Positions 28,913 through 62,868 are shown, counted from the first letter of the stretch. The stretch: DNA of 64,000 nt from Nitrososphaeria archaeon (GCA_029775855.1 JARVJZ010000006.1:96001-160000); one strand, 5' to 3'. The notes: generated by a model not told the origin, from the letters alone. Translations and numbers: made by a program.

Positions 28913-31444
28913 ATGGTTTCTAATGATTCTGATGTAAAGATATGCTATGTTAGCGGCGGGTTATGTGGTCATTCACGCTCCGGACCTCCTATGGAGGTTC
29001 ATGTTAAGGATGGTAAGATCATTAGGGTGCTGCCCTTCCGAGTACCGGATGAAGTTAGACTCTATAAGATCAAGACGAGCAAAGGCGAGTTCACAAGACC
29101 CAGGAGAACTGTGCCAGCAGCATTTATGCTCGCTCACAAAAAGAGAGTGGATTCGCCGAATAGATTAAAGTATCCTTTGAAGAGAGTGGATTGGAGCCCT
29201 GAAAATAGGAACCCTCAGAATAGGGGTAAGAGTGGATATGTTAGGATAAGCTGGGATGAAGCTATAGAAATAATCGTTAACGAGATCAAAAGGATAAAGG
29301 AGGTTTACGGCACAACCGAAGCGGTTTTGGTGCAAGCTGATGGGCATGGTCAATCAGGGCTGCTGCACACATTCCATTGTTACGGCCACTATCTATTCGA
29401 CAAGCTAGGAGGCTACACCTCACAAGTGAGGAACCCAGACAGCTGGGAAGGCTACTACTGGGGCGCAAAGCATGTATGGGGCTTCGATGCTCAAGTAGGT
29501 GAGCCGATTCAAGACGCGATCTTTGATGACATCTTAGAGAATTGTGAGATGCTGATATTCAGCGGCTGCGACCCTGAAACTACGCCAGCAGGCTTCGCTG
29601 GGCAGATAGGCACAATAATGTGCAGATGGATAAAACAGGCTGGAATAAAGATCGTTGGTATATCGCCTGACTTAAATTACGCTGAAGCCGTGCACGCTGA
29701 TAAATGGATACCCATTAAACCCAACACAGACGCAGCCTTATACTTGGCGATAGCATACACTTGGATCAAAGAGGACACATACGACAAGAAGTTTGTGCAG
29801 ACACACTGCATCGGCTTCGAAGAATTCAAGAAGTATGTTTTAGGTGAAGAAGATGGTGTTCCAAAGACACCAGAGTGGGCTGAGAGAATCTGTGGAGTGC
29901 CTGTTGAGACGATAAAGGCGCTTGCAAGAGCTTGGGCTAAGAAGAGAACATCCCTAGCAGTATTCTTCGGAGGACCTAAGATAAGGGGGCCTTATTGTAG
30001 TGAGGTTGCGAGGATAGAAGCGATAGTCTTATCTATGCAAGGACTTGGTAAGCCGGGTAGGCAATTCTTTAGATTTTGGTATAGGCTTGGCTTAGGCTGT
30101 AAGAAGCTTTCGCCTATACCTAGATATCCTGAGGTGGATGCTGAGGGGACTCCTCCGAACTTTGCTGAACCTTATGTATATATGCCTCCAACCAGCAGAT
30201 CTTTCGTTATTAAAACGCTGGTGCCAGAAGCTATTCTTAATCCTCCTGTTAGTTGGTATTGTGCCGGCTCTATTATTTGCCCTCGTGAAGATCAGTTCAC
30301 CAAATACACCTTCCCACCTTCAAAAGATCATCCTGGTATACATATGATTTGGAACGAGAATGCTTGCTGGACTGCTTGCTGGAGCAACGGCTATAAGATG
30401 ATTGAGGCTTTAAGGAGCGAGAAGATAGATTTTGTAGTCGGTATACATCCCTGGTTGGAGAATGATCTGCTGTATGCTGACCTTATACTTCCAGCCCAGA
30501 CCATATTTGAGCATGATGACATAGTTCCAGTGAATCATACAGATATTGTAGGTTTGGTTTATCAAGATAAGTGCATAGAGCCTGTTGGTGAATCTAAGAG
30601 CGACTATGAGATACACCGCCTTATAGCTGAGAAACTTGGTATCGGCGATGCGTTTCCACCGCCTGAGGAGGCGTTAAAGAAAGCCTATGAGAAGACATTG
30701 GCAGCTAAGAAGATGAGTTGGGAGGAGTTCAAGAAGAAGAAGGTTGTGATCTACGACTGCCCAACTCCAGAGGAGTGGGAAGAAATTAAGAGGAAGTATA
30801 ATGTTAAGCCTGGGTTGACTTGGTTCTATGAAATGCCTGAGGGTAAGGGTTTGGAGACACCAACTGGGAAACTTGAATTCTACTCTACGGGTCTTGCCGA
30901 GCACTTTCCAGACGATAAAGAAAGACCACCTTTACCACGCTATTTGCCTCATGGTGAAGCACATCAAGAGAGCTTAAGTCATCTTAGGGCTGAGAAGTAC
31001 CCTCTGCTTCTTATGTCTAACCATCCAAGGTGGAGGCTTCACTCTCAAGGCGATGATATATCTTGGACAAGAGAGATACCTACCTGCAAAGTTAAAGGGT
31101 CTGATGGCTACCTCTATGAGCCTCTTTGGATTCACCCTATAGATGCTGAGAAAAGGGGTATAAAGAGCGGAGATGTAGTTATGATATTTAACGAGCGCGG
31201 CGTGGTTCTTGGAGGCGCATATGTGACTGAGAGGATAATGCCTGGCACGGTATACATGGATCACGGTGCTAACCATGATCCAATAGAAGATAAAGTAGAT
31301 AGAGGTGGATGCATAAATCTGATAGCGCCACCGCCTCACGAGAAGAGAATTGCGGGGATGGAGGTTAGGGTTCCAGAGATGTGCGCAAGCGGCTATTTGG
31401 TTGAAGTTCAAAAGTTGGATGAAGATTATCTGGTAGGTGAGTAA
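28913..31444 (+). CDS. Mo-bisPGD oxidoreductase, pyrogallol transhydroxylase alpha-like (DMSO reductase family)
   Basis: SPNRLKYPLKRVDW...RNPQNRGKSGYVRISWDEA, NPDSWEG (Ser ligand), HPRWRLHSQGD; no Tat leader. Confidence 0.85.
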   Translation: MVSNDSDVKICYVSGGLCGHSRSGPPMEVHVKDGKIIRVLPFRVPDEVRLYKIKTSKGEFTRPRRTVPAAFMLAHKKRVDSPNRLKYPLKRVDWSPENRNPQNRGKSGYVRISWDEAIEIIVNEIKRIKEVYGTTEAVLVQADGHGQSGLLHTFHCYGHYLFDKLGGYTSQVRNPDSWEGYYWGAKHVWGFDAQVGEPIQDAIFDDILENCEMLIFSGCDPETTPAGFAGQIGTIMCRWIKQAGIKIVGISPDLNYAEAVHADKWIPIKPNTDAALYLAIAYTWIKEDTYDKKFVQTHCIGFEEFKKYVLGEEDGVPKTPEWAERICGVPVETIKALARAWAKKRTSLAVFFGGPKIRGPYCSEVARIEAIVLSMQGLGKPGRQFFRFWYRLGLGCKKLSPIPRYPEVDAEGTPPNFAEPYVYMPPTSRSFVIKTLVPEAILNPPVSWYCAGSIICPREDQFTKYTFPPSKDHPGIHMIWNENACWTACWSNGYKMIEALRSEKIDFVVGIHPWLENDLLYADLILPAQTIFEHDDIVPVNHTDIVGLVYQDKCIEPVGESKSDYEIHRLIAEKLGIGDAFPPPEEALKKAYEKTLAAKKMSWEEFKKKKVVIYDCPTPEEWEEIKRKYNVKPGLTWFYEMPEGKGLETPTGKLEFYSTGLAEHFPDDKERPPLPRYLPHGEAHQESLSHLRAEKYPLLLMSNHPRWRLHSQGDDISWTREIPTCKVKGSDGYLYEPLWIHPIDAEKRGIKSGDVVMIFNERGVVLGGAYVTERIMPGTVYMDHGANHDPIEDKVDRGGCINLIAPPPHEKRIAGMEVRVPEMCASGYLVEVQKLDEDYLVGE

Positions 31445-32276
31445 GGTGGGTAAGGTTCTCATTATAGATGTTTCTGAATGCGTAGGATGCTACTGCTGCC
31501 AAATAGTATGTAAAGATGAACATGTTGGAAACGATTGGTCACCTTACGCTAAACCTCAACCCGACACTGGTCACTTCTGGCTTAAAGTAGATGAAATGGA
31601 GCGGGGTACCATACCTAAAGTTAAGGTCACATATACCCCGATCTTATGTATGCACTGCGACAACGCACCTTGCATACCAGCGTGTCCAGACAACGCCATA
31701 GTGAAGAGAGAGGACGGTATAGTGCTCATAAAACCGGAGAAGTGTAGTGGCTGCAAACTCTGCTTAGACGCTTGCCCATACGGTGTGATCTACTTTAACA
31801 GCGAATTGAACATCGCTCAAAAATGCACTCTCTGTGCACACCTCCTTGATAAAGGCTGGAGTGAGACAAGGTGTGTAGGCGCTTGCCAACGCGAAGCGCT
31901 TATATTAGGAGAGGAGGGTGACCCTAAGATCAAAAGTTTAATTGAGAAGAGTGAGGTGTTCCACCCAGAGTATGGAACTAAACCTAGGGTCTATTATCTT
32001 AACTTGCCCAAGCCGTTTATAGCTGGGACCATAGTAGATTCATCTATTAGGGAATGTGTTGAGGGAGCTACGGTGGTTGCCTTGGATCTAGTTGAGGGTG
32101 TGAGGCATCAAACGGTTTCAGACGAGTTCGGGGACTTCTGGCTTAGGGATTTAAAGTGGATGCACCGATACCTAATTGAGGTATCTAAGGAAGGCTATGC
32201 TTCAAAGAAGGTTTGCGTAGTCCATACTGCTAAGGATGTGAATCTAGGCACGATAACCCTAACTAAACTCATTTGA
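31437..32276 (+). CDS. Fe-S subunit, transhydroxylase beta-like, with C-terminal beta-sandwich domain
   Basis: CVGCYCCQIVCKDEHVGNDW, CMHCDNAPC, CSGCKLCLDACPYG, KCTLCAH; SDEFGDFW tail. Confidence 0.87.
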   Translation: MSKVGKVLIIDVSECVGCYCCQIVCKDEHVGNDWSPYAKPQPDTGHFWLKVDEMERGTIPKVKVTYTPILCMHCDNAPCIPACPDNAIVKREDGIVLIKPEKCSGCKLCLDACPYGVIYFNSELNIAQKCTLCAHLLDKGWSETRCVGACQREALILGEEGDPKIKSLIEKSEVFHPEYGTKPRVYYLNLPKPFIAGTIVDSSIRECVEGATVVALDLVEGVRHQTVSDEFGDFWLRDLKWMHRYLIEVSKEGYASKKVCVVHTAKDVNLGTITLTKLI

Positions 32277-33733
32277 CCATCTATAGTGGGATAGGTTTGT
32301 CTTTCCTATTTAGGAGAAAGACAGTAAGCACAGCTCTGAAGGTTTATCCGCCTAACTTTCAGGTGGAGTCTGGTAGGAGTGTGACATTAAAGGCTCATCT
32401 GAATCCTGAGAAGGCGCCTGTGGAGCGTGTTGAGTGGCGTTTAGAGGGTTTAGGTATACTTTCTGAATCAAAGGGTCCTTCCACTGTGTATACTGCGCCT
32501 AATGTAGAGCAGGAGACTAAAGTTAGGGTTGTAGCGTCTTTCCCTAAGATGAGTGAATACTTAGAGAGCTCATCTTATGCTGAGGGTGTGATCTTACCTT
32601 CTGGCTTGGCTGCTAAGTCTTCTACATTTCTTACAATATCTCCTATAAGTTTTTCGATAAATGCAGGTGAAAACATTGATTTAACAGCTGTTTTGACAGA
32701 CATGCAAGGAAATCTCTTAGGCAGTAAAGAGATCGTGTGGTTCATACAACCTCAACTAGGCAAATTAACACCAACATCAAACAACACAGCAGTATACACC
32801 GCACCTAAAGTAGATGTTGAAAACCAAATCTTAATCAAAGCAGTCTTTCAAGGCGATGAGCAGCACCTACCTTGTGAAGGTGTCTCAATAGGCTTAGTGA
32901 CGCCACCTACACTTAACGACGAATACATACTCAGCTTTAGTAGGGCAGAGGTATCAAACCTTAAGATCGATGGTGGAGCTGAGGTTGATGGTGTAAGGGT
33001 TGTTAGGATCAGTGTTGACTTGCTTGAAATATCTGATATGAGGATAAGTAGAGTGAATCTATCCTCGCAAAGCGGAGTTCTACAGAAGGTTGAGATATAC
33101 GCAACACGCCTCACAGCGCGCATACCAGATTCAGACAAGGGGTTAGATGTTAAAGGCGAAGATGATATACATCTTAACGCTTCTGAAGCCAGCTTAGATA
33201 ACGGTGTAATCTACTTTGTGAAGATGAGTTGTCTAAGTGGGGAATTAACTCAACCTGAAGTTTTAGGGCGGTATGCTGGTGGAGATGAGCCATACCTACC
33301 TATATTACTTACGACATCAAACATAACTATGGATAGGGGCTTTTCAGTTACAGGACCAGAGACATATGGCATGTTGGAGAATAAAGCTACTAAGATACTC
33401 TGCGGGAGAATCTCTGCATCAAACTTCTTCTTAAAATGCCCTAGCAGATACAGCTTAGATAGAGAGGGAAATAATCACGAGTTTGTTGAAAAGTGGGCTC
33501 TAAACGCTTCATCAGCAGCAATAGAGGATGCTGAGATATATGCAATATACTTCAAGGTAAGAGCCCTATTGGTATGGAGAGTTAAGGCTACTGGAGAAGA
33601 GTATATCCCAAGCATAATACCAGAAGGCCTCCACAGAGGAGAAAAAGCGCCGATAAACGAGGCGGATGTGGACATAATCTACCTCAAAGCCACTAAACTA
33701 AAGGTCAATAACGCATCATTCACTTTAAAGTAG
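32273..33733 (+). CDS. Hypothetical protein with two Ig-like repeats and a repeated beta-rich C-terminal region
   Basis: Repeats ..W...LG.L....T.VYTAP.V (x2); VEIYAT / AEIYAI repeat. Confidence 0.7.
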   Translation: MTIYSGIGLSFLFRRKTVSTALKVYPPNFQVESGRSVTLKAHLNPEKAPVERVEWRLEGLGILSESKGPSTVYTAPNVEQETKVRVVASFPKMSEYLESSSYAEGVILPSGLAAKSSTFLTISPISFSINAGENIDLTAVLTDMQGNLLGSKEIVWFIQPQLGKLTPTSNNTAVYTAPKVDVENQILIKAVFQGDEQHLPCEGVSIGLVTPPTLNDEYILSFSRAEVSNLKIDGGAEVDGVRVVRISVDLLEISDMRISRVNLSSQSGVLQKVEIYATRLTARIPDSDKGLDVKGEDDIHLNASEASLDNGVIYFVKMSCLSGELTQPEVLGRYAGGDEPYLPILLTTSNITMDRGFSVTGPETYGMLENKATKILCGRISASNFFLKCPSRYSLDREGNNHEFVEKWALNASSAAIEDAEIYAIYFKVRALLVWRVKATGEEYIPSIIPEGLHRGEKAPINEADVDIIYLKATKLKVNNASFTLK

Positions 33734-36068
33734 AGCGATTCTTCAACAACCAAAAGACCTTCTCAGGGGTTATAGGAAGACTGGTAACCCTAACCCCTAT
33801 AGCATCCTTAACACCATTACCTATAGCTGGCGCTATAGGCAGAACCCCTAGCTCGCCTACCGAGCGTGAGCCGAAAGGCCCAGGCCCTATGCCGCTCTCT
33901 AGAATTGTAGTTTCTATGTTAGGTGTCTCAGATATAGATGCTATTAGGTAATCCATAAAGGTGCCGTTGAAGATCTGCCCTTCTTCTATAACAAGTTCTT
34001 CAAAGAGAGATGTGCTGAAACCCATCCAAGCACCTCCCTTTAGCTGCCCCTCTACTAAAGCGGGGTTGACCGCTCTACCTACATCGGCTATAACTTTGAT
34101 GTTCAAGACCTTTATTGACCCACTTTCCGGGTCTACTGCTAAGTCTACTGCTGCGCAGATAGGCGTGTATTCTAGTGCTACTCTAGGCTTGGATGCTTGC
34201 CCTGTTTCTGGGTCTATCTCCGCTAAATCTTCGTAGAAGAAGCCTCTGCCTAGCAGTAGGCCTGTTTGCTCTATGTATGCTCCACCCATGGGTCCTGCTG
34301 TGAAGAGGGTTTCGAGGGGTATCTCTTCAGTTGTATTTTCTGACTCTACCTTCAACTTTCCGTTGCTGAATGATATTTTATCTTTTGGTTTAGAGAGGAT
34401 TTTGGAGGCTGCTTCGACTATCTGCCCCTTAAGATCTTTGACTGCTGCCAGCACGGCATTACCTAACTGGACGAGCTGCCTACTTCCGCTTGAGCCTGGT
34501 GATATAGGCGTTAGGAGGGTATCTGACGAGATCACCCTAACTTTGCTGAGTGGTATATTGAACTCTTTAGCAACGATCTGAGCAAGCCCAGTAAATGTCC
34601 CTTGACCTATGTCTGTAGCGCCGATGTAGAGGTCGATGGTTAGATCTTCGTTTAGGCGTATAAGTGCTACGCTTGGATAGGTTATGTCACATTGATGCTT
34701 CGCTATGGCTACACCCCGACCTACAACCCAACCGTCTATGGGGCTCTTTGGTTTTGGGTTTTCATCTAAGAGCTTCTTTAATGTGTTTATGCAAAGCCTC
34801 ATTGTATCGCTGTGTATCTTCTCTCCTATACAGCTCACATCGCTATCCTTTAAGATGTTTTTCAGCCTAAGTTCTAAGGGGTCTATGTTAAGCCTCTGAG
34901 CGATTTCGTTCATCTGAGACTCTATAGCCCAATATATTTGTGTTGAACCGAAGCCTCTGAACGCGCCTCCTTGAACCTGATTTGTGTAGACTCGATAGAT
35001 GTCTGCCTTAAAGTTAGGTATATTGTAGACTGAGCTTATGGCGTAGATTGCGTTTCTTACAACTACATTCCCAGCTACAGAGTATGCTCCGCCGTTATAT
35101 ACTATGCTCATTACTCTACCAATTATCCGCCCATCTTTAGTTACAGCATCACTTAACTTAATCTCTGCCTGGTGGCGTGTAGTTGTATACATTAGGTCTT
35201 CAAGCCTCGACAAAACGAGCTTAACAGGCCTACCCTGAGTCTTTAGGGCTAGGGCTGCTACTATCGGCTCATACACAGCTGCACCTCGATTACCAAAACC
35301 TCCACCAACATGCTTTGGCACTATGACTCTAATCTTCTGCTCCGGAATCTCTAAAGCGTCTGAAATCTCTTTTCTGGTTCTAAATGGTGTTTGCCCTGAG
35401 GTGTAGATTGTAAGGGAACCATCTGGCTCCTGTTTCGCTATAATAGATGTGGGTTCAAGTTGTGCGTGCTGCACCGCTTGCGTTGTATAAGTGTTAGTGA
35501 TGATAAAATCTGCTTGTTTGAATGCTTCTTCTACATCGCCAAACCTTATCTTTTGCAAAGCCGATACATTCGGTTTATTAGGTGTTAAAGCAACCCTATA
35601 CAGCTTTGACTTCAGCCGCTTGTAGCGCGATAGATCCTCATGCACAACTGTAGGAGGCTCTTCAAGTAAGGCCTCTTTGAAGTCAAAGAGAGGTGTAAGA
35701 GGTTCATACTCAACATCGACCAACTCACAAGCTGCAAAAGCTATGTCAAAAGACTCAGCAGCTACAGCTACTACAGGCTCTCCAATATACCTAACCTTAC
35801 CCCTTGCAAGTATAGGTGTGTCTAGTAGCCCTCTACCGTGCAGCCCCTTCGGCACATCTTCTGCAGTGATTACAGCAACTACGCCGCTAAGTGATGTGGC
35901 TCTACTTGTGTCCACCTTTTTTATGAGGGCGTGTGGTAATGGGCTCCTCTTTAAGCACGCATAGAGCATATAAGGTAGGGTGATGTCAGTTGTATACACT
36001 GCTTTACCAGTAACCTTCTCTAATCCATATAGATTGGGTGCGCGACTTAAATTGTTCATCTTAAACAT
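33720..36068 (-). CDS. Xanthine dehydrogenase-family molybdopterin large subunit (stand-alone)
   Basis: EKVTGKAVY..D, VGGGFG, AFRGFG, DIGQG, EGQLKGG, SVGE. Confidence 0.92.
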   Translation of the reverse strand: MFKMNNLSRAPNLYGLEKVTGKAVYTTDITLPYMLYACLKRSPLPHALIKKVDTSRATSLSGVVAVITAEDVPKGLHGRGLLDTPILARGKVRYIGEPVVAVAAESFDIAFAACELVDVEYEPLTPLFDFKEALLEEPPTVVHEDLSRYKRLKSKLYRVALTPNKPNVSALQKIRFGDVEEAFKQADFIITNTYTTQAVQHAQLEPTSIIAKQEPDGSLTIYTSGQTPFRTRKEISDALEIPEQKIRVIVPKHVGGGFGNRGAAVYEPIVAALALKTQGRPVKLVLSRLEDLMYTTTRHQAEIKLSDAVTKDGRIIGRVMSIVYNGGAYSVAGNVVVRNAIYAISSVYNIPNFKADIYRVYTNQVQGGAFRGFGSTQIYWAIESQMNEIAQRLNIDPLELRLKNILKDSDVSCIGEKIHSDTMRLCINTLKKLLDENPKPKSPIDGWVVGRGVAIAKHQCDITYPSVALIRLNEDLTIDLYIGATDIGQGTFTGLAQIVAKEFNIPLSKVRVISSDTLLTPISPGSSGSRQLVQLGNAVLAAVKDLKGQIVEAASKILSKPKDKISFSNGKLKVESENTTEEIPLETLFTAGPMGGAYIEQTGLLLGRGFFYEDLAEIDPETGQASKPRVALEYTPICAAVDLAVDPESGSIKVLNIKVIADVGRAVNPALVEGQLKGGAWMGFSTSLFEELVIEEGQIFNGTFMDYLIASISETPNIETTILESGIGPGPFGSRSVGELGVLPIAPAIGNGVKDAIGVRVTSLPITPEKVFWLLKNRSTLK

Positions 36069-37939: not shown

Positions 37940-37953
37940 AGGAGGTTAAGCTT

Positions 37954-47342: not shown

Positions 47343-47350
47343 GTGAAATT

Positions 47351-52548: not shown

Positions 52549-52570
52549 CTAACTGTTGCCTCTACGGCGA

Positions 52571-54250: not shown

Positions 54251-54252
54251 AT

Positions 54253-54993: not shown

Positions 54994-55191
54994 GCGATGT
55001 TATATTGTGATAGGTTTTAATTATTCTTTTAGAGGCAGGGTATAAAACAATTGAAGCAATTTAATATATAGGAGCTGACGATTTATTGTTACTTCTACAT
55101 AACACGGTACTTATAAATGCAGATTTATTTAGAGCAAACTTTTGAGCATAAAGTTTAAAGTCATATACTACCAACCAGATAGCTACCGAAT

Positions 55192-56403
55192 ATGCCATCT
55201 AAAGAACTTCGTAAGAAGGAAATAGGCGTGTCTACAGCTGTCGCGGTTGGCGCAATAATAATCATCGCAATTATAGCTGGTGTTGCAGGCTACTTTGGTG
55301 GTGCTGGGCAAGTAGTAACAACAACCGTAACTGAGCGTCAAACAACAACAGCAACAGTAACACAGACAGCAGCAGCCCAAACCATAACACAAACAGTAAC
55401 ACAAACGGTAGCTGGGGAAGGAGTATTAGGCAGAAAGTTGAAGGTAGCGGTAATAGTGCCTGGCAGAGCGAACGACTACGGTTGGAACCAGGAGGGTGTA
55501 GAGGGATTAAGGAAAGTTGCATCAAAGTTTGGTGCAGAATTCTCATTTAGTGAGGGACTAGGTTACGGTGAACCACCACTTCGGGCTATGGAAGATTACA
55601 TTAGAAAGGGATATGATCTGGTAATAGGCCACGCTGGCGGCTATAGAGAGTTCGTCCTAGAGGCAGCTAGAACTGGTAAAATAGGCACAAGTAAGGTTCT
55701 GATCGTAAGCGAGGCTAAAGAGGGTGAGGAGGAGAAGGATGTAGTTCCAGGCAAGGTTGGAACCTACTCATTCGTAGTCTGGGCCGCTTCATACCCAGCG
55801 GGCTACCTCGCTGGTCTAATGACTAAATCTAACGTTGTAGGTATAGTTCAATCTGTTGAGACGGATATCAACTGGATCAGGCAGAGCGCAGCATTTGCAC
55901 AAGGACTTAAAGCAGCTAATCCTAAAGCTAAGCTACTCTTTACAGTTGTAGGCTCATATGAAGACCCGGCGAAAGGGAAAGAGTTTACCGCTGCGCAGAT
56001 CGGGCTTGGTGCTGATGTGATCTTTGGGCAAGGTGATGGCACATCTTTCGGCATAATGGATGCCTGCAGGGATGCTGGAGTTTGGTTTATCGATGTGATA
56101 GGTGATAAGAGGGCTATAGATGAGAAAGGCATACTATTAACTTCTGTACTCTGGGACTTCTCGAAGGCATATGAGCAAGCTCTGATAGACATTTATAATG
56201 GTGAATTCGGTAAACATAACTATTATATGTCGCATGCGAACCAAGCAATCTACTTACTCACCCTAAACCCGAAGGTACCAGCTGATATAGCTACAAAGGT
56301 AAGTGAAGTTAGCAGGAAGATTCAAGCTGGAGAGATCAAAGTGAAGATTCCAGATAACATCGAGGATCTACACGCCATATTCAGGGAACTCGGCTACGAG
56401 TAG
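55192..56403 (+). CDS. BMP/PnrA-family ABC substrate-binding protein, N-terminal membrane anchor
   Basis: ND.GWNQ.G..GL, GYDLVIGH, AG.MTKSN.VG, GADVIF; hydrophobic N-terminus plus Thr-rich linker. Confidence 0.9.
   Translation: MPSKELRKKEIGVSTAVAVGAIIIIAIIAGVAGYFGGAGQVVTTTVTERQTTTATVTQTAAAQTITQTVTQTVAGEGVLGRKLKVAVIVPGRANDYGWNQEGVEGLRKVASKFGAEFSFSEGLGYGEPPLRAMEDYIRKGYDLVIGHAGGYREFVLEAARTGKIGTSKVLIVSEAKEGEEEKDVVPGKVGTYSFVVWAASYPAGYLAGLMTKSNVVGIVQSVETDINWIRQSAAFAQGLKAANPKAKLLFTVVGSYEDPAKGKEFTAAQIGLGADVIFGQGDGTSFGIMDACRDAGVWFIDVIGDKRAIDEKGILLTSVLWDFSKAYEQALIDIYNGEFGKHNYYMSHANQAIYLLTLNPKVPADIATKVSEVSRKIQAGEIKVKIPDNIEDLHAIFRELGYE
55312..55410 (+). repeat. Low-complexity Thr/Val/Gln linker (TVTQT repeats)
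   Basis: Repeated ACAGTAACACA/ATAACACAAAC units encoding VTTTVTERQTTTATVTQT...TITQTVTQTV. Confidence 0.75.
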
Positions 56404-56452
56404 CCGAGCCCATATTTTTCTTTTTCAAGTGTTGATTAGGTGTTTGAGTAAT

Positions 56453-57577
56453 ATGGTTAAAGTTTATAATGAAGATAAAAAAGATTTAAGCAGATTGAGT
56501 AAGGAAGGTTTAGCCATAGAGGCGAAGGTAAGCCCTATTAGTGTATTGGTATCTTCAATTAAGCCTGCTCTTTCAACGATTATAGGTATAGTAGGTGGTA
56601 TGGCCGCTGGCTCCATAGTGCTTTGGTTAACAGGTTTTGATCCGGGATATGTTTACTATACGATCTTTGCGCAAGCTTGGGGCACGTCCTTCGGTGTAGG
56701 TAAGATGTCTATTACGATGATGCCTCTTCTGATAATAGGTGTTGGGCTGCTCTTTTGCTTTAAAGCTGGAACTTGGAATATAGGTGCACAAGGGCAGATG
56801 ATCTTAGGCGCACTTTTCGCTAATGTGGCTGGGTATGCTTTTGGGCCTCTGCCGGCGCCTATTCTTATACCTATTGTGCTTATCGCAAGCATAGTTGGTG
56901 GTTTACTCTGGATTCTTCCAGCTGCTGTTATGAAGGCTAAGTGGGGGATAAATGAAGTCGTTACTACTATGCTTTTCAACTTCTTAGGGATATTTTTGCT
57001 GATGTATCTTGTTAAGAGCCCACTTAGATATCCAAAGGAATATCATCCAATCACACAGCCAATCTACCCTTCAGCGCAGCTCCCTATGCTCCCTGGTGTT
57101 CCTATTCACAGTGGTCTAATTATCGGGTTAGCGCTTGCCATCTTCACATATATCTTCTTTACAAAGACAACATTAGGCTTTCAATTCAGAATAATAGGGA
57201 GCAACTTGAAAGCTGCCAGATACGCTGGGCTACGCATACCTTGGCTAATCTTTTACTCCTTAATCATTAGCGGTGCAATATGTGGGTTAGCTGGTGGGGT
57301 TCAGCTCTCCGGTACTATGCGCTTTCTCGACCCAGACTGGGTCCCTTGGTACGGTTTTCAAGCGGTACCTCTAGTCTTCTTAGCTAGGTTAAACGCGATA
57401 GCACTAATACCCTTCTCATTCTTCTTCGCGTCCTTACTCATAGGAGGTGATCTAATGCACAGGATAGTTGGTCTACCAGTATTCTTTGTGGATGTAATCT
57501 TCGGCTTGATGCTCATACTGTTCGCTGCTTCTGAATCTATCAAATACGTCAGGCTAAAGAAGCGGGGTGCAAAGTGA
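56453..57577 (+). CDS. ABC transporter permease (nucleoside/CUT2 type)
   Basis: WNIGAQGQ, INEVVTTM.FN, G.N.KAARYAG, SGA.CGLAG. Confidence 0.9.
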   Translation: MVKVYNEDKKDLSRLSKEGLAIEAKVSPISVLVSSIKPALSTIIGIVGGMAAGSIVLWLTGFDPGYVYYTIFAQAWGTSFGVGKMSITMMPLLIIGVGLLFCFKAGTWNIGAQGQMILGALFANVAGYAFGPLPAPILIPIVLIASIVGGLLWILPAAVMKAKWGINEVVTTMLFNFLGIFLLMYLVKSPLRYPKEYHPITQPIYPSAQLPMLPGVPIHSGLIIGLALAIFTYIFFTKTTLGFQFRIIGSNLKAARYAGLRIPWLIFYSLIISGAICGLAGGVQLSGTMRFLDPDWVPWYGFQAVPLVFLARLNAIALIPFSFFFASLLIGGDLMHRIVGLPVFFVDVIFGLMLILFAASESIKYVRLKKRGAK

Positions 57578-58527
57578 TCCCTATGATAGACCCTATCTTA
57601 ACGATGTTCATAACATTCATATTAGCCAGCATGCTTAGAGTAGCAACGCCAATCTTACTTGCAGCTTTAGGCGAATGCTATGTGGAGAATGCTGGGATAC
57701 TTAACCTAGGTATAGAGGGGATAATGCTCTTCTCAGCCTTTACGAGCTTTTTAGGGGCAGTAGCAACCAACTCGAGTCTCATAGGGCTGGGGGTGGGTTT
57801 ATGCACCGGTCTGGTCTTAGCGTTGATCTTAGCGGTTCTCTATGTTACTCTTAAATCAGACCAGATCGTTGTGGGCATAGCCTTCTCTTTATCAGCGATA
57901 GGTTTCACAAGCCTATACTTCAGAATACTCTATGGAACTACACTACCTAGGCTCCCAGTTAAAGAGTGGATTGTGACTGTTCCTCAACTTGCAGATGTAC
58001 CGATTATAGGTAGAGTGTTCTTTAATCAACCATTCATGGTTTATGTGAGCATCGCTTTGGTCCCCATCTTCTACTATATTCTCTACAGAACACGCTTTGG
58101 GCTAAAGGTCAGAACACTTGGTGAAAACCCAGTAGTTGCAGACACAGCAGGGGTCAACGTCTTCCTCTACCGCTACATAGTTATGCTCATAGGCGGAATG
58201 CTCGCTGGCGTAGGTGGGGCATACTTATCGCTCTACCAAGTTTCACTCTTCCAAGACAACATGATCCAAGGCCGAGGATATGTAGCTATAGCGATAGTTA
58301 TGTTCGCCAGATGGAACCCTCTAAAGATCTTAGCTGGAGCGCTGCTCTACGGTGGAGCAGAAGCCTTTGCGGGTGCAATACAAGCACTAGGATACCTACG
58401 CACAATACCTGCAGAAATAGTTCTTATGCTGCCTTATCTAATAACTATTGTTGGGCTTGTTGTGCTTGCTCGGCGTGCACGCTTCCCACCAGCATTTGCA
58501 AGACCATATAGGAGGGAGATGAGATGA
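57574..58527 (+). CDS. ABC transporter permease (nucleoside/CUT2 type)
   Basis: ATPILLAALGE, GILNLGIEG.ML, GENP..AD..G, GRGYVAIA. Confidence 0.92.
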   Translation: MIPMIDPILTMFITFILASMLRVATPILLAALGECYVENAGILNLGIEGIMLFSAFTSFLGAVATNSSLIGLGVGLCTGLVLALILAVLYVTLKSDQIVVGIAFSLSAIGFTSLYFRILYGTTLPRLPVKEWIVTVPQLADVPIIGRVFFNQPFMVYVSIALVPIFYYILYRTRFGLKVRTLGENPVVADTAGVNVFLYRYIVMLIGGMLAGVGGAYLSLYQVSLFQDNMIQGRGYVAIAIVMFARWNPLKILAGALLYGGAEAFAGAIQALGYLRTIPAEIVLMLPYLITIVGLVVLARRARFPPAFARPYRREMR

Positions 58528-60047
58528 GTAAAGAAGACTATGCTGTGCAGATGAGAGGCATAACAAAAACCTTCCCAGGGGTAGTGGCGAACAAAAATGT
58601 TGATTTAGATTTAAGGAAGGGTGAAATACACGGGCTTTTAGGTGAAAACGGTGCAGGCAAAACAACTCTAATGAACATACTATCCGGATTCTACAAACCA
58701 GATGAAGGAGAGATATATGTTGAAGGAAAGCGTGTTAAGATGCATTCACCTAAAGACGCGCTTAAGCTCGGTATAGGCATGGTTTACCAACACTTTACAC
58801 TGGTTCCAGAATTCAAGGTAGTCGAAAACATCATGCTCGGTATGGATGTAGTAGGGAAGAAGCTGAGCCTAAAAGCAACAGCTAACCTAATAGAAGAGCA
58901 GGCTAAACAACTTGGCTTTACAGTAGACCCTTGGAGCAAAGTAGCAGATCTATCCTTAGGCGAGCAGCAGAAAGTAGAGATTCTCAAAGTTCTCCTACGC
59001 GGAGCCAAAGTAATTATATTAGACGAACCGACCTCGGTATTAGCACCGGTAGAAATAGCGGGCTTATTCAACGTGTTAAAGCAGCTCGCATCTCAAGGCA
59101 AATCGATTGTTTTTATCACACATAAGCTTAATGAAGTTATGGAGATCTGCGACAGAATAACCGTGCTCAGAAGTGGAATGAAGATAGGAACGTTAAACAG
59201 AAGTGAAATTGCATCAACATTAGATATCATAAAGATGATGTTTGGCGTAGAGGCTGAACCGGCACTTGCAGCAGAAGTTCCAAAAGAACTAGGTAAAGAA
59301 GTTCTAAAAGTAGAGAATCTCGTTGTTGAAAGTGACAGAGGAATAGACGCCGTCAAAGGAGTCTCATTCACAATAAGGGAAGGGGAGATTTTAGGGCTAG
59401 CAGGTATAGATGGAAATGGTCAAAAAGAACTCGCTGAAGCTCTGTCTAGAATAAGAAGCGTAAAGTCTGGAAAAATATACTTCAAAGGGGAAGACGTCAC
59501 AGCTCTTAGCCCAGCAGATCTTTACTTAAAGGGAGTCACATACATAACCGATGACAGAATAAGTGAGGGGTTAATCCAAGACTTTACTTTAGCCGAGAAC
59601 GTGGTGCTAAAAGACTTTAGAAAAAATGGTGTAAAACGTGGTTTATTTATCGACTGGAAGAAGATCACAGAAAACGGGCGGAAACTCGCCGAAGAATACG
59701 AGTTAGCCGCAGCAAAGCCAAACTCATTAGTCCAAACACTTTCAGGTGGCACACAGCAGAAGCTACTTGTAGCTAGGGAGATAGGCGGCGACGCATCACT
59801 TATAATTGCCAATCAACCAACACACGGAGTTGACGCAAAGACTACAGCATACATTAGAAAGAAGCTGATAGAAAGCGCCGCTAAAGGCGCTGCTGTGCTC
59901 CTAATCTCTAACGATTTAGATGAGATATTCAGCTGCAGCAACACAATAGCGGTAATATACGAAGGCAGGATTCTTGGCATCTTAGATAGACAAAGCGCCA
60001 CAAGAGAAAATGTAGCTTACCTTATGATAGGTGTAAAGAAGGATTAG
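58524..60047 (+). CDS. ABC transporter ATPase, two fused NBDs
   Basis: GENGAGKT, ILDEPT, LSGGTQQK, QPTHGVD. Confidence 0.95.
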   Translation: MSKEDYAVQMRGITKTFPGVVANKNVDLDLRKGEIHGLLGENGAGKTTLMNILSGFYKPDEGEIYVEGKRVKMHSPKDALKLGIGMVYQHFTLVPEFKVVENIMLGMDVVGKKLSLKATANLIEEQAKQLGFTVDPWSKVADLSLGEQQKVEILKVLLRGAKVIILDEPTSVLAPVEIAGLFNVLKQLASQGKSIVFITHKLNEVMEICDRITVLRSGMKIGTLNRSEIASTLDIIKMMFGVEAEPALAAEVPKELGKEVLKVENLVVESDRGIDAVKGVSFTIREGEILGLAGIDGNGQKELAEALSRIRSVKSGKIYFKGEDVTALSPADLYLKGVTYITDDRISEGLIQDFTLAENVVLKDFRKNGVKRGLFIDWKKITENGRKLAEEYELAAAKPNSLVQTLSGGTQQKLLVAREIGGDASLIIANQPTHGVDAKTTAYIRKKLIESAAKGAAVLLISNDLDEIFSCSNTIAVIYEGRILGILDRQSATRENVAYLMIGVKKD

Positions 60048-60088
60048 CAGTTAAATAAGAGGATTAAGCTAAGAGTAAATAGGTTAAA

Positions 60089-61117
60089 TTGGAGAGTATG
60101 AAAGCAGCGGTATTTAGAGGGGTAAACAACCTCTCGGTAGAAGATAGACCTATACCAGAAATCAGAAGCCCTAACGATGTTCTACTTGAAATATACGGCT
60201 GCGGCATCTGCGGCACAGATCCAAAAATAATAGCTGGGGAGCACCCCGTGGTGCCCGGAATAATACTTGGCCATGAATATGCTGGCACGGTTGTAAAAGT
60301 AGGAGAGAAGGTGAAGAACGTTAAACCTGGGGACCGTGTAACCGTTGATGTTGATATTAAATGCGGCGAATGCTACTACTGCAAGACTGGGAGAGAGAAC
60401 CTATGCCAGAACATCAAGACCCTAGGTGAGCATCTTGATGGGGGATATGCAAAATATAATGTTTCACCGGCGCAAACACTTTACAAGATCCCAGATGATA
60501 TGTCATTTGAAGCTGGTATAATGGCTGGACCAATATCTTGCGTGGTTAACGGTGTGAGGAGGGCTCAGATTAAGCCTGGAGACACTGTGGTTATTATTGG
60601 CGCAGGACCTATGGGGCTGCTCTACCTTCAACTGCTTAAAGACAGTGAAGCAAGCAAGGTTATTGTCTGCGAGATTAAAGATAAGCGCATCGAAGATGCG
60701 AAGCGCTTCGGCGCTAAAATAGTAATAGACCCCAAGAAAGAAGAGCCGGCTGAAGTTGTTAAGAGTTTGACTGATGGTAGAGGGGCTGATGTAGTTATAG
60801 AAGCCGCAGGCAACCCAACAGCAACTAGACAAGCGCTCTCTATGGTAGGCAGAGGAGGTAGGATAGTGCTATTCGGCATAAACCCTCAAGGCCAAGAGGT
60901 TCCGATACAACCATTTGACATAACCTTTAGGCAGATAGAGATAGTGGGTAGCTTCATCTCAAACTACACCTTCCACGCAGCGGTGGACCTCTTAAGCGCA
61001 GGTAAATTTGATACACATAATTTCATTACGCACCGAGTCAAAATTACAGATATCCACAGAGGTATGGATCTAATGCGTAGAGGTGAATGCATAAAAGTCA
61101 TGGTGATACCAGAGTAG
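60089..61117 (+). CDS. Zn-dependent medium-chain alcohol dehydrogenase
   Basis: CGICGTD, GHE, CGECYYC..C, GAGPMG. Confidence 0.9.
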   Translation: MESMKAAVFRGVNNLSVEDRPIPEIRSPNDVLLEIYGCGICGTDPKIIAGEHPVVPGIILGHEYAGTVVKVGEKVKNVKPGDRVTVDVDIKCGECYYCKTGRENLCQNIKTLGEHLDGGYAKYNVSPAQTLYKIPDDMSFEAGIMAGPISCVVNGVRRAQIKPGDTVVIIGAGPMGLLYLQLLKDSEASKVIVCEIKDKRIEDAKRFGAKIVIDPKKEEPAEVVKSLTDGRGADVVIEAAGNPTATRQALSMVGRGGRIVLFGINPQGQEVPIQPFDITFRQIEIVGSFISNYTFHAAVDLLSAGKFDTHNFITHRVKITDIHRGMDLMRRGECIKVMVIPE

Positions 61118-61272
61118 TTGCTGGGCTAATATAATAGGTCTTGATCTAGTAAAACCGAAAGAAGTATCATCAACCAATATTACTTAATGGGTTTGGAGTC
61201 TTGGCACTGTATAGCGGTTGATAATGTTAACCTTTGGAGAGAGTGTAGTTAAGTATTCAAAAATTTTGTATT

Positions 61273-61381
61273 TAAGTTTAAACTTATATTTGTTTTAATC
61301 AAAGGTGCAGCAGAGATTAAGATTATGAATATTGGATTGGATAAGAGTCTTATAGATGTTTAACATCTAAAATCTTGATTT
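61273..61381. promoter_or_regulatory. Cluster of perfect palindromes upstream of the fumarase genes
   Basis: TAAGTTTAAACTTA (61273-61286), ATAAGA-G-TCTTAT (61341-61353), TAGATGTT-T-AACATCTA (61353-61369), AAATC-TT-GATTT (61370-61381). Confidence 0.5.
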
Positions 61382-62261
61382 GATAAGCAAACTCGTGGTA
61401 AAGTCGACAGTTAAAGAACTTTTGAGGATAGCTTCTGTGGAGCTGCCCAATGATGTGAAGATGGCTTTAAGAGCTGCTTACGAGCGTGAGGTTGATGCTG
61501 TGCCTAAGATGCAGCTTAAAGCTATACTCGACAACATCGATCTTGCTGAAAAGACGGGTATTCCTATGTGTCAGGATACTGGCATTCATGTGGTGTATGT
61601 TAAGTGGGGTGATGTTGATGTTGAGGATTTGGAGGAAGCAGTAAGGGAGGGGGTTGCGGAGGCTACATCTTCTATACCTCTTCGCCCCAACGCTGTGCAT
61701 CCCCTAACTCGAAAGAACCCTGGCACGAATGTCGGTTTGCATATGCCCTATATACACATCGATAAAACAAAGGAGAAGTTCTTGGAGATCACGGTTATGC
61801 CTAAGGGGTTTGGTGCTGAAAATATGAGTGCTTTAGCGATGCTAACCCCAGCACATGGACTCAAAGGTGTTAAGGAGTTTATTCTGCAGACGGTTGTGAA
61901 GGCTGGCGGCAACCCTTGCCCACCTGGCATACTTGGTATTGGGATTGGTGGGACGGCTGATGTCGCTATGAAGCTCGCTAAGGAGGCTCTGCTTCGTCCA
62001 CTTGGCTCTAGAAATCCTGATCCAGAGGTGGCTAAGTTGGAGGAGGAACTTCTTGAAGCGTTGAACGGCTTAGGCATAGGTCCTATGGGTTTAGGTGGTA
62101 AGACCACTTTGCTTGGTGTTAACATCGAGGTAGCCTACACTCATACGGCTGGGTTGCCTGTTGCTGTGAACTATCAGTGTTGGGCTGCTAGGCGTGCTTC
62201 TGCTAGAATATACCCTGATGGTAGGGTGGAGTATACTTCACATAGGAAGAAGGAGGTGTGA
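61380..62261 (+). CDS. fumA: Class I Fe-S fumarate hydratase/tartrate dehydratase, alpha subunit
   Basis: PMCQDTG, PKG.G.EN, GNPCPP, GIGPMGLGG, CWAARR. Confidence 0.9.
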   Translation: MISKLVVKSTVKELLRIASVELPNDVKMALRAAYEREVDAVPKMQLKAILDNIDLAEKTGIPMCQDTGIHVVYVKWGDVDVEDLEEAVREGVAEATSSIPLRPNAVHPLTRKNPGTNVGLHMPYIHIDKTKEKFLEITVMPKGFGAENMSALAMLTPAHGLKGVKEFILQTVVKAGGNPCPPGILGIGIGGTADVAMKLAKEALLRPLGSRNPDPEVAKLEEELLEALNGLGIGPMGLGGKTTLLGVNIEVAYTHTAGLPVAVNYQCWAARRASARIYPDGRVEYTSHRKKEV

Positions 62262-62268
62262 AGATAGT

Positions 62269-62868
62269 TTGGCTGAGTATAGGCTTACTACTCCGCTTGA
62301 CGATGATGTTGTTAGAAGTCTGAGTATAGGGGATATAGTTTACCTTACAGGCATAATCTACACTGCACGAGACGAAGCGCATATACATATCTTAGAAGAT
62401 TTAAGGCGTGGTCGTGAACTTAAGATATCTTTGAGGGGTGCGGTGATCTACCACTGTGGCCCTATTCTCAAGCGTGTAAATGGGGGGTGGAGGGTGTTAG
62501 CTGCTGGGCCGACGACGAGTTCAAGAATGAATCCGCTTGAACCAGAGTTTATCGAGAAGACCGGCGTGAAAGGTGTGATAGGGAAGGGTGGTATGTCTAA
62601 GCCTGTAGTTGAAGCTTTAGCTAAGCACGGGGCGGTTTACTTATCTTTCACAGGCGGTGCTGCTGTGCTAGCTGCAAACGGGATAAAGGCGGTTAAAGGT
62701 GTTTACTATGAGGAGCTCGGTATGGCTGAAGCTGTTTGGGTGTTTGAAGTTAAAGACTTTGGTCCACTGATAGTTGGGATAGATGCGAAGGGTAACTCAA
62801 TATTTGAGAAGGTGGGCTTGGAGGTTCAGCAGAACATTCAAAGAGTTAGGGAGAAGCTGAGCATCTAG
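62269..62868 (+). CDS. fumB: Class I fumarate hydratase, beta subunit (start TTG 62269)
   Basis: YTARDEAH, YHCGP, AGPTTS.RM, IGKGGM, LGMAEA. Confidence 0.9.
   Translation: MAEYRLTTPLDDDVVRSLSIGDIVYLTGIIYTARDEAHIHILEDLRRGRELKISLRGAVIYHCGPILKRVNGGWRVLAAGPTTSSRMNPLEPEFIEKTGVKGVIGKGGMSKPVVEALAKHGAVYLSFTGGAAVLAANGIKAVKGVYYEELGMAEAVWVFEVKDFGPLIVGIDAKGNSIFEKVGLEVQQNIQRVREKLSI

Follow-up and report, generated by a model that had tools for sequence, protein, structure and literature searches.

We analysed a 64,000 nt window of the genome of a Nitrososphaeria archaeon (G000:C6:96001-160000; positions are counted from the window start), in which a sequence-only reading had proposed an island of catabolic genes for vitamin B6 at 28913-62868. 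Pfam scans of the 29 open reading frames (ORFs) from 28913 to 63872 confirmed the gene families listed in that reading almost item by item (Table 1). They include an aminotransferase resembling pyridoxamine-pyruvate aminotransferase (PPAT), a metallo-beta-lactamase-fold (MBL) lactonase, a basic membrane protein-type (BMP) ABC importer and, upstream of a tungsten-type aldehyde:ferredoxin oxidoreductase (AOR), the MoaD-like protein predicted there, an ORF of 82 aa with a Gly-Gly end. As had also been stated, neither a glucose-methanol-choline (GMC) oxidase nor a flavoprotein of the 2-methyl-3-hydroxypyridine-5-carboxylate (MHPC) oxygenase type was found among the 29 ORFs. NCBIfam scores were judged against the curated (equivalog) cut-offs.

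Table 1. Features of the locus and the basis of their assignment
Feature	Position	Strand	Basis or remark
ThiN-like protein	25173-26261	-	Part of upstream thiamine-pyrimidine salvage group
CytX-like putative hydroxymethylpyrimidine (HMP) transporter	26192-27499		270 bits, cut-off 310
ThiDN HMP/HMP phosphate (HMP-P) kinase	27506-28876		563 bits, above cut-off 528
Molybdopterin enzyme, transhydroxylase-like	28913-31444		Pyrogallol hydroxytransferase large subunit 4v4c 465 bits, dimethyl sulfoxide (DMSO) reductase 239
4Fe-4S beta subunit with CarboxypepD_reg domain	from 31437		Pfam
486-aa protein	within trio 28913-33733		Weak Ig-like match; no NCBIfam match
Xanthine dehydrogenase (XDH)-family Mo large subunit 1	33720-36068	-	Pfam MoCoBD_1, MoCoBD_2, Ald_Xan_dh_C
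SdhA	from 36191		Pfam
SdhB	37912-39459		C-terminal part fused, matches QmoC
4-Pyridoxolactonase-like MBL-fold lactonase	39542-40291	+	NF047925, PDB 3aj3
MoaD/ThiS-like small protein	40339-40587	+	82 aa, C-terminus ...IFAGG; assignment from C-terminus only
Tungsten-type AOR	40650-42524	+	Pfam AFOR_N, AFOR_C
3-Hydroxyacyl-CoA dehydrogenase (3HCDH)-fold NAD enzyme, candidate 5-formyl-3-hydroxy-2-methylpyridine-4-carboxylate (FHMPC)/4-pyridoxate dehydrogenase	42545-43492	-	Ambiguous assignment
TrmB-family regulator	43537-44430	+	Pfam TrmB; specific to genus
ParB/Noc-like DNA-binding protein	44484-45368	+	Pfam ParB_N and HTH_ParB
Luciferase-like monooxygenase-family (LLM) oxidoreductase 1	45365-46354	-	Pfam Bac_luciferase
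Three-subunit XDH-family Mo hydroxylase	46431-50118 (FAD 46431-47342; 2Fe-2S 47351-47833; Mo 47830-50118)	+	Pfam
LLM oxidoreductase 2, candidate ring reductase or monooxygenase	50119-51111	+	TIGR03619
NicX-family protein ('M29-like')	51135-52148	-	Foldseek, profile search, Pfam PF26233
Single-domain cupin	52183-52548	-	Pfam Cupin_2
Carboxymuconolactone-decarboxylase-family (CMD) protein	52571-53011	-	Pfam CMD
PPAT-like class-V aminotransferase	53129-54250	+	NF046070, PDB, tree
Metal-dependent Amidohydro_2 enzyme	54253-54993	-	Pfam PF04909, 94.8 bits
BMP-family ABC importer	55192-60047 (binding protein 55192-56403; permeases 56429-57577, 57574-58527; double ATPase 58524-60047)	+	Pfam
Zn-dependent alcohol dehydrogenase (Zn-ADH), candidate pyridoxine/pyridoxal dehydrogenase	60089-61117	+	Pfam ADH_N, ADH_zinc_N
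Class-I fumarase, two parts	from 61380 and 62194		Pfam

The strongest link to vitamin B6 came from the aminotransferase. Its best NCBIfam match was pyridoxamine-pyruvate transaminase (NF046070, 358 bits), 139 bits ahead of the next family, BhcA (219 bits). In the PDB it matched 2z9u best (246 bits), an entry that the search output labels 'Aspartate aminotransferase' and that we take to be the PPAT of Mesorhizobium loti; alanine:glyoxylate aminotransferases (AGTs) reached at most 189 bits and PucG ranked third with 188 bits. A quick IQ-TREE phylogeny (LG+G4, SH-aLRT support only) was built from 105 class-V rows, comprising the window protein, 14 database homologs, 89 loci (best full-length match, at least 320 aligned residues) and the host's own paralog. 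The window protein fell within a 57-row clade joined, with an SH-aLRT support of 98, to a 15-row clade containing the PGAP-named PPAT of a Rhizobium daejeonense plasmid; identity to PGAP-named PPAT is only about 38%. The own paralog (G000:C3) and AGT-family genes of Haloferax, Halomicrococcus and Peptoclostridium lay outside this 72-row clade; the latter, plasmid matches of 37-41% identity, were considered as PPATs, rejected as generic AGT-family genes in unrelated neighbourhoods, and used as outgroups. Several long branches were flagged, and the two reference PPATs are both Rhizobium plasmid genes named by model rather than assay. With that proviso, the protein groups with PGAP-named PPATs and away from generic AGTs, in agreement with the PPAT-like label of the sequence-only reading.

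Glu68 and the Schiff-base Lys197, which we presume to be typical of PPAT and of its specificity for unphosphorylated pyridoxal, were invariant in the 72 clade rows; they also occurred in 24 and 33, respectively, of the 33 outgroup rows, and Glu68 was rejected as a PPAT signature because it does not discriminate against the outgroup. Q66 and S231 were common to the window clade and the Rhizobium PPATs and different in most outgroup rows. Orthologs of at least 53% identity were present in four of the 41 genomes of our order sample and, at E <=1e-90, in two of the 401 genomes of the phylum sample, G000 being included in both counts; a single-protein search of genome contigs matched only the same-genus contig. 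Some metagenome homologues already carry the name PPAT in automatic JGI annotation.

Two further proteins pointed in the same direction. The lactonase scored 223 bits to the 4-pyridoxolactonase family (NF047925) versus 142 bits to AiiA, and its best PDB match was the 4-pyridoxolactonase 3aj3 (152 bits), with N-acyl-homoserine lactone (AHL) lactonases at 111 bits or less. Its HLHFDH aligns with HFHFDH of 3aj3, the HxHxDH zinc motif of the MBL fold. It is thus 4-pyridoxolactonase-like by both best family and best solved relative, as first proposed, though below the family cut-off. Orthologs were found only in G001, G003, L017 and L023, and JGI names many metagenome homologs 4-pyridoxolactonase. 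The importer's binding protein had a single NCBIfam match, NF047927 ('putative B6 ABC SBP', 260 bits); it shared 37% identity with its counterpart in a Rhizobium B6 cluster and matched the nucleoside binder PnrA/TmpC poorly (45 bits). The best NCBIfam families of the Zn-ADH were threonine and inosose dehydrogenases, both below cut-off, and in L031 and L040 the PPAT-like gene adjoins an ortholog of 72-74% identity.

The association of these genes was examined across other genomes. A pattern scan over metagenome contigs yielded 80 loci, and 44 of them, together with L017 (a stretch from genome G322), formed a set of 45 loci of at least 6 kb: 25 from the window clade, five from a sister clade and 15 around generic relatives. 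In the window clade, 15 of the 25 loci contained a NicX-family gene, 16 a cupin gene and 11 a BMP binding protein gene, whilst each of these occurred in none of the 15 generic loci. Over all 45 loci the cupin was the most constant partner of the PPAT-like gene (17 loci), followed by the NicX-family gene (16), LLM2 and the XDH large subunit (nine each), CMD (eight), the 3HCDH-fold enzyme, the XDH FAD subunit and Amidohydro_2 (seven each), AOR (six), Zn-ADH (five), LLM1 (three) and the lactonase (two); the BMP importer was present in 11-13 loci. The NicX-family and cupin genes often formed one same-strand run with the PPAT-like gene (L052-L056). The gene set is conserved across distant lineages, and its NicX-family, cupin and binding-protein genes are absent around generic relatives, a comparison that the sequence-only reading had proposed and that came out in its favour.

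Two versions of the island were apparent. The bacterial-type version (L049, L052, L053, L054 and L056) has the order ferredoxin, AOR, PPAT-like gene, PreA-like Fe-S flavoprotein, UbiD, 3HCDH-fold enzyme, NicX-family gene, cupin, AOR and BMP ABC importer, an order taken from the most complete loci, L052 and L056; contig ends truncate L049 and L053. The archaeal version has LLM, Amidohydro_2, XDH and CMD genes where the bacterial type has UbiD, the PreA-like gene, two AORs and a ferredoxin, a non-orthologous replacement that would preserve the chemistry; the lactonase is sometimes present and the importer is of the BMP or energy-coupling factor (ECF) type. UbiD (five loci) and Amidohydro_2 (seven loci) were never found in the same locus, a mutual exclusion that fits one shared decarboxylation step. 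BMP-type ABC importer genes were present in 13 loci, and a vitamin-type ECF transporter was complete in seven, with two of its three genes in three more. This transporter, which combines a double ATPase in fused form with a T component and an ECF-ribofla_trS-family S component, replaces the BMP importer directly beside the PPAT-like gene in L026 (7836-11133) and similarly in L025, L027-L029, L033, L039 and L040; its S component may represent a new B6-type specificity. In L017 (17398-19122) and L023 (8281-9825), whose genes are most like those of 'Candidatus Caldarchaeum' metagenome-assembled genomes (MAGs), the PPAT-like gene adjoins an FAD enzyme of the CrtO/phytoene-desaturase/amine-oxidase type; its only relative in the window genome is 34% identical and lies away from the locus, on C1. 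Island-family members occurred in MAGs labelled Bathyarchaeia, Anaerolineales and Thermodesulfobacteriota, and related islands are carried by many uncultured archaea and anaerobic bacteria.

The most constant enzyme partner after the cupin, the NicX-family protein, had been described as an M29-like hydrolase. A single-sequence PDB search gave no match. Foldseek comparison of a structural model (mean pLDDT 74) placed the NicX structures 7cup and 7cn3 first (TM 0.73-0.75, E 2e-20), followed by PepS, AmpS and AmpT (TM 0.61-0.65). A profile of 12 family members also ranked NicX first in the PDB (E 1e-4), and the database cluster to which the protein belongs carries a precomputed Pfam PF26233 (NicX) assignment. 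Pfam PF02073 matched the C-terminal half only (39 bits, cut-off 27), and M29 enzymes exceed the protein in length by about 75 residues. PMC7910607 reports that the NicX family acts on pyridine rings and that the Fe(II) ligands of NicX are His265, Ser302, His318 and Asp320. In an alignment made via a Rhizobium NicX-type protein these correspond to Glu266, Ala292, His310 and Asp312, two of the four being kept; none of the substrate residues His105, Glu177, His189 and Arg293 is conserved. Set against the M29 aminopeptidase ligands (PMC4661694), E266, H310 and D312 align with Glu319, His381 and Asp383 of PepS, and E204, H290 and Y300 are invariant at positions assigned by their M29-like spacing. 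The M29 metal ligands appear to be kept, whilst by modelled fold and PF26233 the protein is a member of the pyridine ring-cleaving NicX family. A hydrolytic role is plausible, and we lean slightly towards one that is independent of O2. Paralogs of 27-36% identity were present at G000:C2:235959-236876 and in G001, G003, G008, G024 and G025, and occurred in several relatives that have no PPAT-like gene, the family being wider than the B6-type island.

The cupin has small DddK-type cupins as its best PDB relatives and, in our reading of the alignment, retains a His/Glu/His set that could bind iron. The CMD protein showed weak similarity to that of a Rhizobium B6 cluster (pairwise E 7e-6). In the Amidohydro_2 enzyme, DxHxH (D14, H16, H18), H98, H128, H156 and D208 are invariant, and a model (pLDDT 91) displayed the barrel of the amidohydrolase superfamily. 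Its top Foldseek matches (TMq 0.68-0.76) were mostly decarboxylases of dihydroxybenzoate, 5-carboxyvanillate, isoorotate (IDCase) and alpha-amino-beta-carboxymuconate-epsilon-semialdehyde (ACMSD), with lactonases (4do7, LigI) and the uncharacterised 3cjp scoring alike. On this modelled similarity it looks like an ortho-hydroxyaryl-acid decarboxylase. The matching step of the known B6 pathway removes the carboxyl group beside the 3-hydroxyl of a pyridine dicarboxylate.

The redox enzymes were less specific in their matches. The first XDH-family large subunit has no FAD or Fe-S subunits of its own alongside and is a candidate ring hydroxylase or aldehyde oxidoreductase; its best NCBIfam families, 4-hydroxybenzoyl-CoA reductase alpha and XdhA, fell below their cut-offs, and L017, L023 and L051 have an ortholog of it (60-61% and 48% identity) next to the PPAT-like gene. 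The three-subunit hydroxylase has orthologs of all its subunits (49-52%, 64-70% and 69-71%) in the same position in L026, L028, L033 and L039. AOR orthologs of 46-49% identity occur inside the bacterial-type clusters L049, L052 and L056, and three paralogs (39-40%) lie elsewhere in G000. LLM1 scored 145 bits to its best NCBIfam family, TIGR03557 (cut-off 210), and has orthologs of 66-67% identity in L017 and L023. The sequence-only reading had called both LLM enzymes F420-type. This held for the family of LLM2, which scored 200 bits to the F420-dependent LLM subfamily TIGR03619 (cut-off 167), but CofD was not found in the 98%-complete genome, which leaves the supply of F420 doubtful; the LLM enzymes may therefore be flavin monooxygenases.

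The limits of the island were defined by comparison with related loci. In G003, of the same genus, gene order from SdhB to Zn-ADH is retained across 38714-53048 and 53168-61111 at about 77% nucleotide identity. This conservation, and the recurrence of much of the set in distant loci, indicate clustering in excess of chance. In the close relatives L019 and L020, SdhB is joined directly to the aminotransferase gene: 39519-53126 is missing, the Amidohydro_2 gene is truncated, and only the PPAT-like gene, the ABC importer and Zn-ADH are retained. A further close relative, L022, is missing the XDH trio. The transhydroxylase-like trio (28913-33733), whose large subunit and 486-aa neighbour had no counterpart in any of the 45 loci, matched nothing beside an aminotransferase gene apart from a weak 26% Fe-S-subunit similarity; this pyrogallol-hydroxytransferase-like group stays apart from B6-type loci. 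SdhAB and fumarase are the sole copies in G000 and flank the locus even in L019 and L020. Their matches beside a PPAT-like gene (72-87%) are confined to those two loci, those in the generic loci L077 and L079 being 34-49%, and as single-copy genes they are best read as chromosomal flanks. Residues 164-505 of SdhB match QmoC (133 bits), which makes the membrane anchoring of this complex II unusual. Neither the transhydroxylase pair nor complex II nor fumarase accompanies the island, and the span 28913-62868 was not confirmed as a single unit; the core island is narrower, 39542-61117 plus 33720-36068.

The TrmB regulator is 73% identical in G003 and was found in none of the 45 other loci, and the ParB-like protein has only 29-32% matches, to longer proteins, in L017 and L023. 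When 9-mers were compared across 12 intergenic stretches for a shared TrmB operator, only AAGTTTAAA recurred, in three stretches; it resembles a promoter-type A/T box and was therefore not taken as evidence of a regulon. In a sediment RNA-Seq library, contigs of at least 95% similarity fell on 28 of 30 bins of 41500-61400, which is compatible with transcription. Depths differed from gene to gene, but such contigs cannot rank genes, and the uncovered bins 43492-44155 and 46148-46811 (run X1) carry no meaning; the small shares seen in runs X2 and X3 were not used to draw conclusions on habitat.

The host genome is 1.5 Mb in six contigs and rated 98% complete. It has no AmoA match, such matches being present in two relatives, and no heme-copper oxidase subunit I (COX1) was found in it, whereas both AmoA-bearing relatives and G322 have one; cytochrome bd is encoded. 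PdxS was not found in G000, G001, G003, G035 or G322, which are all five genomes with a PPAT-like ortholog, and PdxJ was not found in the three carriers tested (G000, G003 and G322). Conversely, PdxS is present in G002, a genome of the same genus without orthologs of the three markers tested there (aminotransferase, NicX-family gene and lactonase). The absence of PdxS from all five carriers ties the island independently to B6. The distributions of ThiC and CofD differ from this pattern: ThiC was not found in G000 and is present in G003, which retains the whole island, and CofD (PF01933, F420 synthesis), not found in G000, occurs in 32 of the 41 relatives, G003 included. Directly upstream of the island, at 25173-28876, lies a thiamine-pyrimidine salvage group; its ThiDN is the one gene of the genome that strongly matches the Phos_pyr_kin family (HMP/pyridoxal kinases). 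The host looks like a small, heterotrophic, multi-vitamin-auxotrophic and non-nitrifying member of an order that includes ammonia oxidisers. It seems unable to make vitamin B6, and no known gene for synthesis of pyridoxal phosphate (PLP) was found.

Gene families, best matches, clade, synteny and presence or absence are observations; every substrate in the scheme that follows, and the order of steps after pyridoxal, are what we infer from them. We moderately favour the interpretation that 39542-61117 and 33720-36068 form a modular island for the uptake and breakdown of B6 vitamers or very close 3-hydroxypyridine relatives, and this is probably a new archaeal and anaerobe version of B6 catabolism and salvage, with enzymes unlike those of the known bacterial pathway. 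In the first module (53129-61117), the BMP-type importer would take up vitamers, the PPAT-like enzyme would convert pyridoxamine and pyruvate to pyridoxal and alanine, and Zn-ADH would oxidize pyridoxine or pyridoxal. On its own, this module could in addition supply PLP salvage, a role that the absence of PdxS and PdxJ makes possible and that the sequence-only reading had not considered. In the second (39542-53011), pyridoxal would become 4-pyridoxate in one of two ways: via the lactone, opened by the 4-pyridoxolactonase-like enzyme, or by direct action of AOR, which may turn pyridoxal and/or a 5-formyl intermediate into the acid. The 5-hydroxymethyl group might be oxidized by the 3HCDH-fold enzyme, AOR or the XDH-family enzymes, and the Amidohydro_2 decarboxylase would then remove the carboxyl group ortho to the ring hydroxyl. 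An XDH-type hydroxylase acting next to the nitrogen could give a 2,5-dihydroxypyridine pattern, and/or the LLM enzymes could reduce the ring. The NicX-family metalloenzyme would open the ring or an amide product, with the cupin and CMD proteins completing the breakdown.

The B6 assignment of the sequence-only reading came through most of the tests applied to it, with the aminotransferase, the lactonase, the binding protein, the clade and the synteny in its favour. Its third enzyme marker, the 3HCDH-fold protein, did not discriminate: it scored 266 bits to 3-hydroxybutyryl-CoA dehydrogenase (HBD) and 239 bits to FHMPC dehydrogenase (FHMPC_DH, NF042925, cut-off 500), with PDB matches to 6aa8 (210 bits) and 4om8 (203 bits), which gives FHMPC dehydrogenase no advantage over HBD. 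The Pfam scans found no thiolase, hydratase or acyl-CoA dehydrogenase in the island. Several other observations also weigh against our interpretation. The B6 family scores fall below their cut-offs, namely 600 for the aminotransferase, 325 for the lactonase and 400 for the binding protein; NF047927, itself labelled 'putative', was probably defined from genome context, and so is not independent of the PPAT evidence. The 105-row comparison gave no clean residue signature for pyridoxamine specificity. Outside the genus the lactonase is confined to its two of 45 loci, and those 45 loci come from a small number of independent lineages (about seven). In five loci of the window clade (L030, L038, L048, L057 and L060) there is no other island gene in up to 10 kb on each side, within contig ends, once a weak 26% Fe-S match (L038) and XDH/LLM matches at paralog level (about 29-36%; L048, L057 and L060) are set aside. 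The PdxS pattern reflects three lineages only, and 16 of the 41 relatives have no PdxS anyway. The RNA contigs cannot exclude DNA carry-over, and B6 is scarce in nature, a role as growth substrate not being obvious.

These points leave room for other explanations, of which the most credible, though we consider it unlikely, is that two unrelated functions adjoin: the importer, PPAT-like enzyme and Zn-ADH would supply pyridoxal for PLP, and the neighbouring 39542-53011 would degrade another N-heterocycle such as nicotinate or another hydroxypyridine. The missing PdxS and PdxJ, the reduced L019/L020 locus and the ThiDN kinase just upstream would suit such a split, and NicX-family enzymes, XDH-type hydroxylases and CMD proteins are typical of nicotinate-type routes. 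Yet the NicX-family gene and cupin, the most constant neighbours of the PPAT-like gene (15 and 16 of 25 loci), are unneeded for salvage; the lactonase has a B6-specific best match, and 4-pyridoxate is a dead end in salvage; and NicX-like and CMD genes are found as well in the Rhizobium clusters that have a PGAP-named PPAT. Less probable again is a different substituted N-heteroaromatic, for example the thiamine pyrimidines HMP or aminomethyl-pyrimidine, or a pyridine alkaloid, with the PPAT-like protein an ordinary PLP-dependent amine:pyruvate transaminase. The sub-threshold scores and the distance from PGAP-named PPAT leave space for this, PreA-like (dihydropyrimidine-dehydrogenase-type) and XDH-type enzymes also suit pyrimidines, and an HMP salvage pair, CytX-like and ThiDN, lies upstream (26192-28876) in a genome where ThiC was not found. 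Against it, G003 has ThiC together with the whole island, and it is the absence of PdxS that tracks the island. The lactonase, closest to 4-pyridoxolactonase, would need a hydroxymethyl group adjacent to a carboxyl group, a pairing found in B6 derivatives and missing from HMP, and the binding protein resembles its counterpart in a bacterial B6 cluster. The NicX family, moreover, acts on pyridine rings (PMC7910607).

The main alternative named in the sequence-only reading, a purine or nucleoside route, found little support and appears very improbable. It would have the BMP importer take up nucleosides, the XDH-family enzymes oxidize purines, a PucG-like aminotransferase take part and amidohydrolases open the ring. 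The BMP family does include nucleoside binders, there are two XDH-family enzymes, and PucG is among the best PDB matches of the aminotransferase; however, that protein scored 246 bits to 2z9u against 188 to PucG, and the match of the binding protein to PnrA is poor. Among the 29 ORFs there is no uricase, allantoinase, allantoicase, ureidoglycine/ureidoglycolate enzyme or nucleoside phosphorylase, and the conserved partners (NicX family, cupin, UbiD and AOR) are not enzymes of purine pathways.

Whether the favoured breakdown of B6 vitamers would proceed without oxygen, as first suggested, is a separate matter. Consistent with such a route, no oxygenase family of the bacterial B6 pathway was found among the 29 ORFs, the bacterial version of the island contains AOR, UbiD and PreA-like enzymes typical of anaerobes, the genus is without heme-copper oxidase, and family members occur in the MAGs labelled Bathyarchaeia, Anaerolineales and Thermodesulfobacteriota. 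On the other side, the nearest characterized relative of the NicX-family protein is an O2-dependent dioxygenase, G000 encodes cytochrome bd, and four COX1 matches occur in G322, whose locus L017 is an almost complete island; the cupin could bind iron, and the LLM enzymes may be flavin monooxygenases. O2-independence is thus not shown, given the dioxygenase NicX, the missing CofD, cytochrome bd and one aerobic carrier. We regard as possible but doubtful a fully O2-independent mineralization of B6 in anoxic sediments and hot springs, with hydrolytic ring opening by the NicX-family protein and a UbiD/PreA-like/AOR counterpart in bacteria. Under that proposal the tungsten AOR would oxidize aldehydes, UbiD or the ACMSD-type enzyme would decarboxylate the ortho-hydroxy acid, and an XDH-type enzyme would hydroxylate the ring with water and/or a PreA-like or LLM enzyme would reduce it. 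The NicX-family opener would retain the dinuclear hydrolase site of M29 ancestors, the NicX dioxygenases being an aerobic offshoot of an older hydrolase family. Carriers would be B6 auxotrophs for which the imported vitamin serves as both cofactor source and substrate.

To our knowledge, B6 catabolism is established only in a few aerobic bacteria and depends on oxygenases. A literature search, with subscription journals outside its coverage, found no description of archaeal or anaerobic B6 catabolism, as the sequence-only reading had supposed, and a 2026 preprint reports no 4-pyridoxolactonase homologs in archaea (10.64898/2026.01.20.700305). If correct, our interpretation would extend B6 turnover to archaea and anoxic habitats, provide an enzymology for opening 3-hydroxypyridine rings without the known oxygenases, and give a role to NicX-family/M29-like proteins now annotated as 'aminopeptidases'. 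The conserved gene set would serve as a metagenome marker for vitamin scavenging, and the link between PdxS loss and island gain would offer a testable example of how vitamin cross-feeding shapes small archaeal genomes.

The known pathway I of M. loti MAFF303099 and Pseudomonas MA-1 proceeds through PPAT, pyridoxal 4-dehydrogenase, 4-pyridoxolactonase and 4-pyridoxic acid dehydrogenase, followed by FHMPC dehydrogenase, 3-hydroxy-2-methylpyridine-4,5-dicarboxylate (HMPDC) decarboxylase, MHPC oxygenase and alpha-(N-acetylaminomethylene)succinate (AAMS) hydrolase. The window shares with it a PPAT-clade aminotransferase, a 4-pyridoxolactonase-like enzyme, the 3HCDH fold of FHMPC dehydrogenase and a candidate decarboxylase for an ortho-hydroxy pyridine acid. 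In contrast, GMC oxidases, a pyridoxal dehydrogenase of the short-chain dehydrogenase/reductase (SDR) or aldo-keto reductase (AKR) type, MHPC oxygenase, a class-II-aldolase-type HMPDC decarboxylase and an alpha/beta-hydrolase-type AAMS hydrolase were not seen in the window, which instead has AOR, XDH-type, LLM, Amidohydro_2, NicX-family, cupin and CMD proteins in an archaeal host.

A closer parallel was provided by the B6 clusters on plasmids of R. daejeonense (NZ_CP048425.1, 118872-149927; L099) and Rhizobium sp. ACO-34A (CP021372.1, 61476-92531; L103). These hold pyridoxine 4-oxidase, PPAT, MBL lactonase, SDRs, an MmgE/PrpD protein and an HpaB-type monooxygenase with flavin reductase, as well as a NicX-annotated dioxygenase, two amidases, CMD and a BMP ABC importer. 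They are unlike the textbook M. loti pathway and may constitute an undescribed aerobic route through dihydroxypyridine. Five families (PPAT, MBL lactonase, CMD, NicX-type protein and BMP importer) are common to these clusters and the window, and the presence of NicX-type genes in both ties a pyridine ring-cleaving family to B6 genes in two different settings. The Rhizobium clusters differ in being plainly aerobic, given their pyridoxine 4-oxidase, their HpaB-type monooxygenase with flavin reductase and a NicX protein with His265, His318 and Asp320 intact, in having amidases, and in being without AOR, XDH, LLM and Amidohydro_2; their NicX-type protein is only 27% identical to that of the window over 147 residues. 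With NicX of the Pseudomonas putida nicotinate pathway, the window protein shares fold, size, PF26233, the HxD metal motif (H310 and D312, equivalent to His318 and Asp320) and a setting of pyridine-ring catabolism with an XDH-type hydroxylase nearby; it differs in having Glu266 for His265 and Ala292 for Ser302, and in its changed substrate residues. The anaerobic fermentation of nicotinate by Eubacterium barkeri employs a Mo hydroxylase, a ring reductase and an enamidase. The O2-free route proposed here would resemble it in logic, with XDH-family hydroxylation using water, ring reduction and hydrolytic opening, whereas the reductase and hydrolase candidates of the window belong to other families (LLM or PreA-like, and NicX/M29-like) and would act on another substrate.

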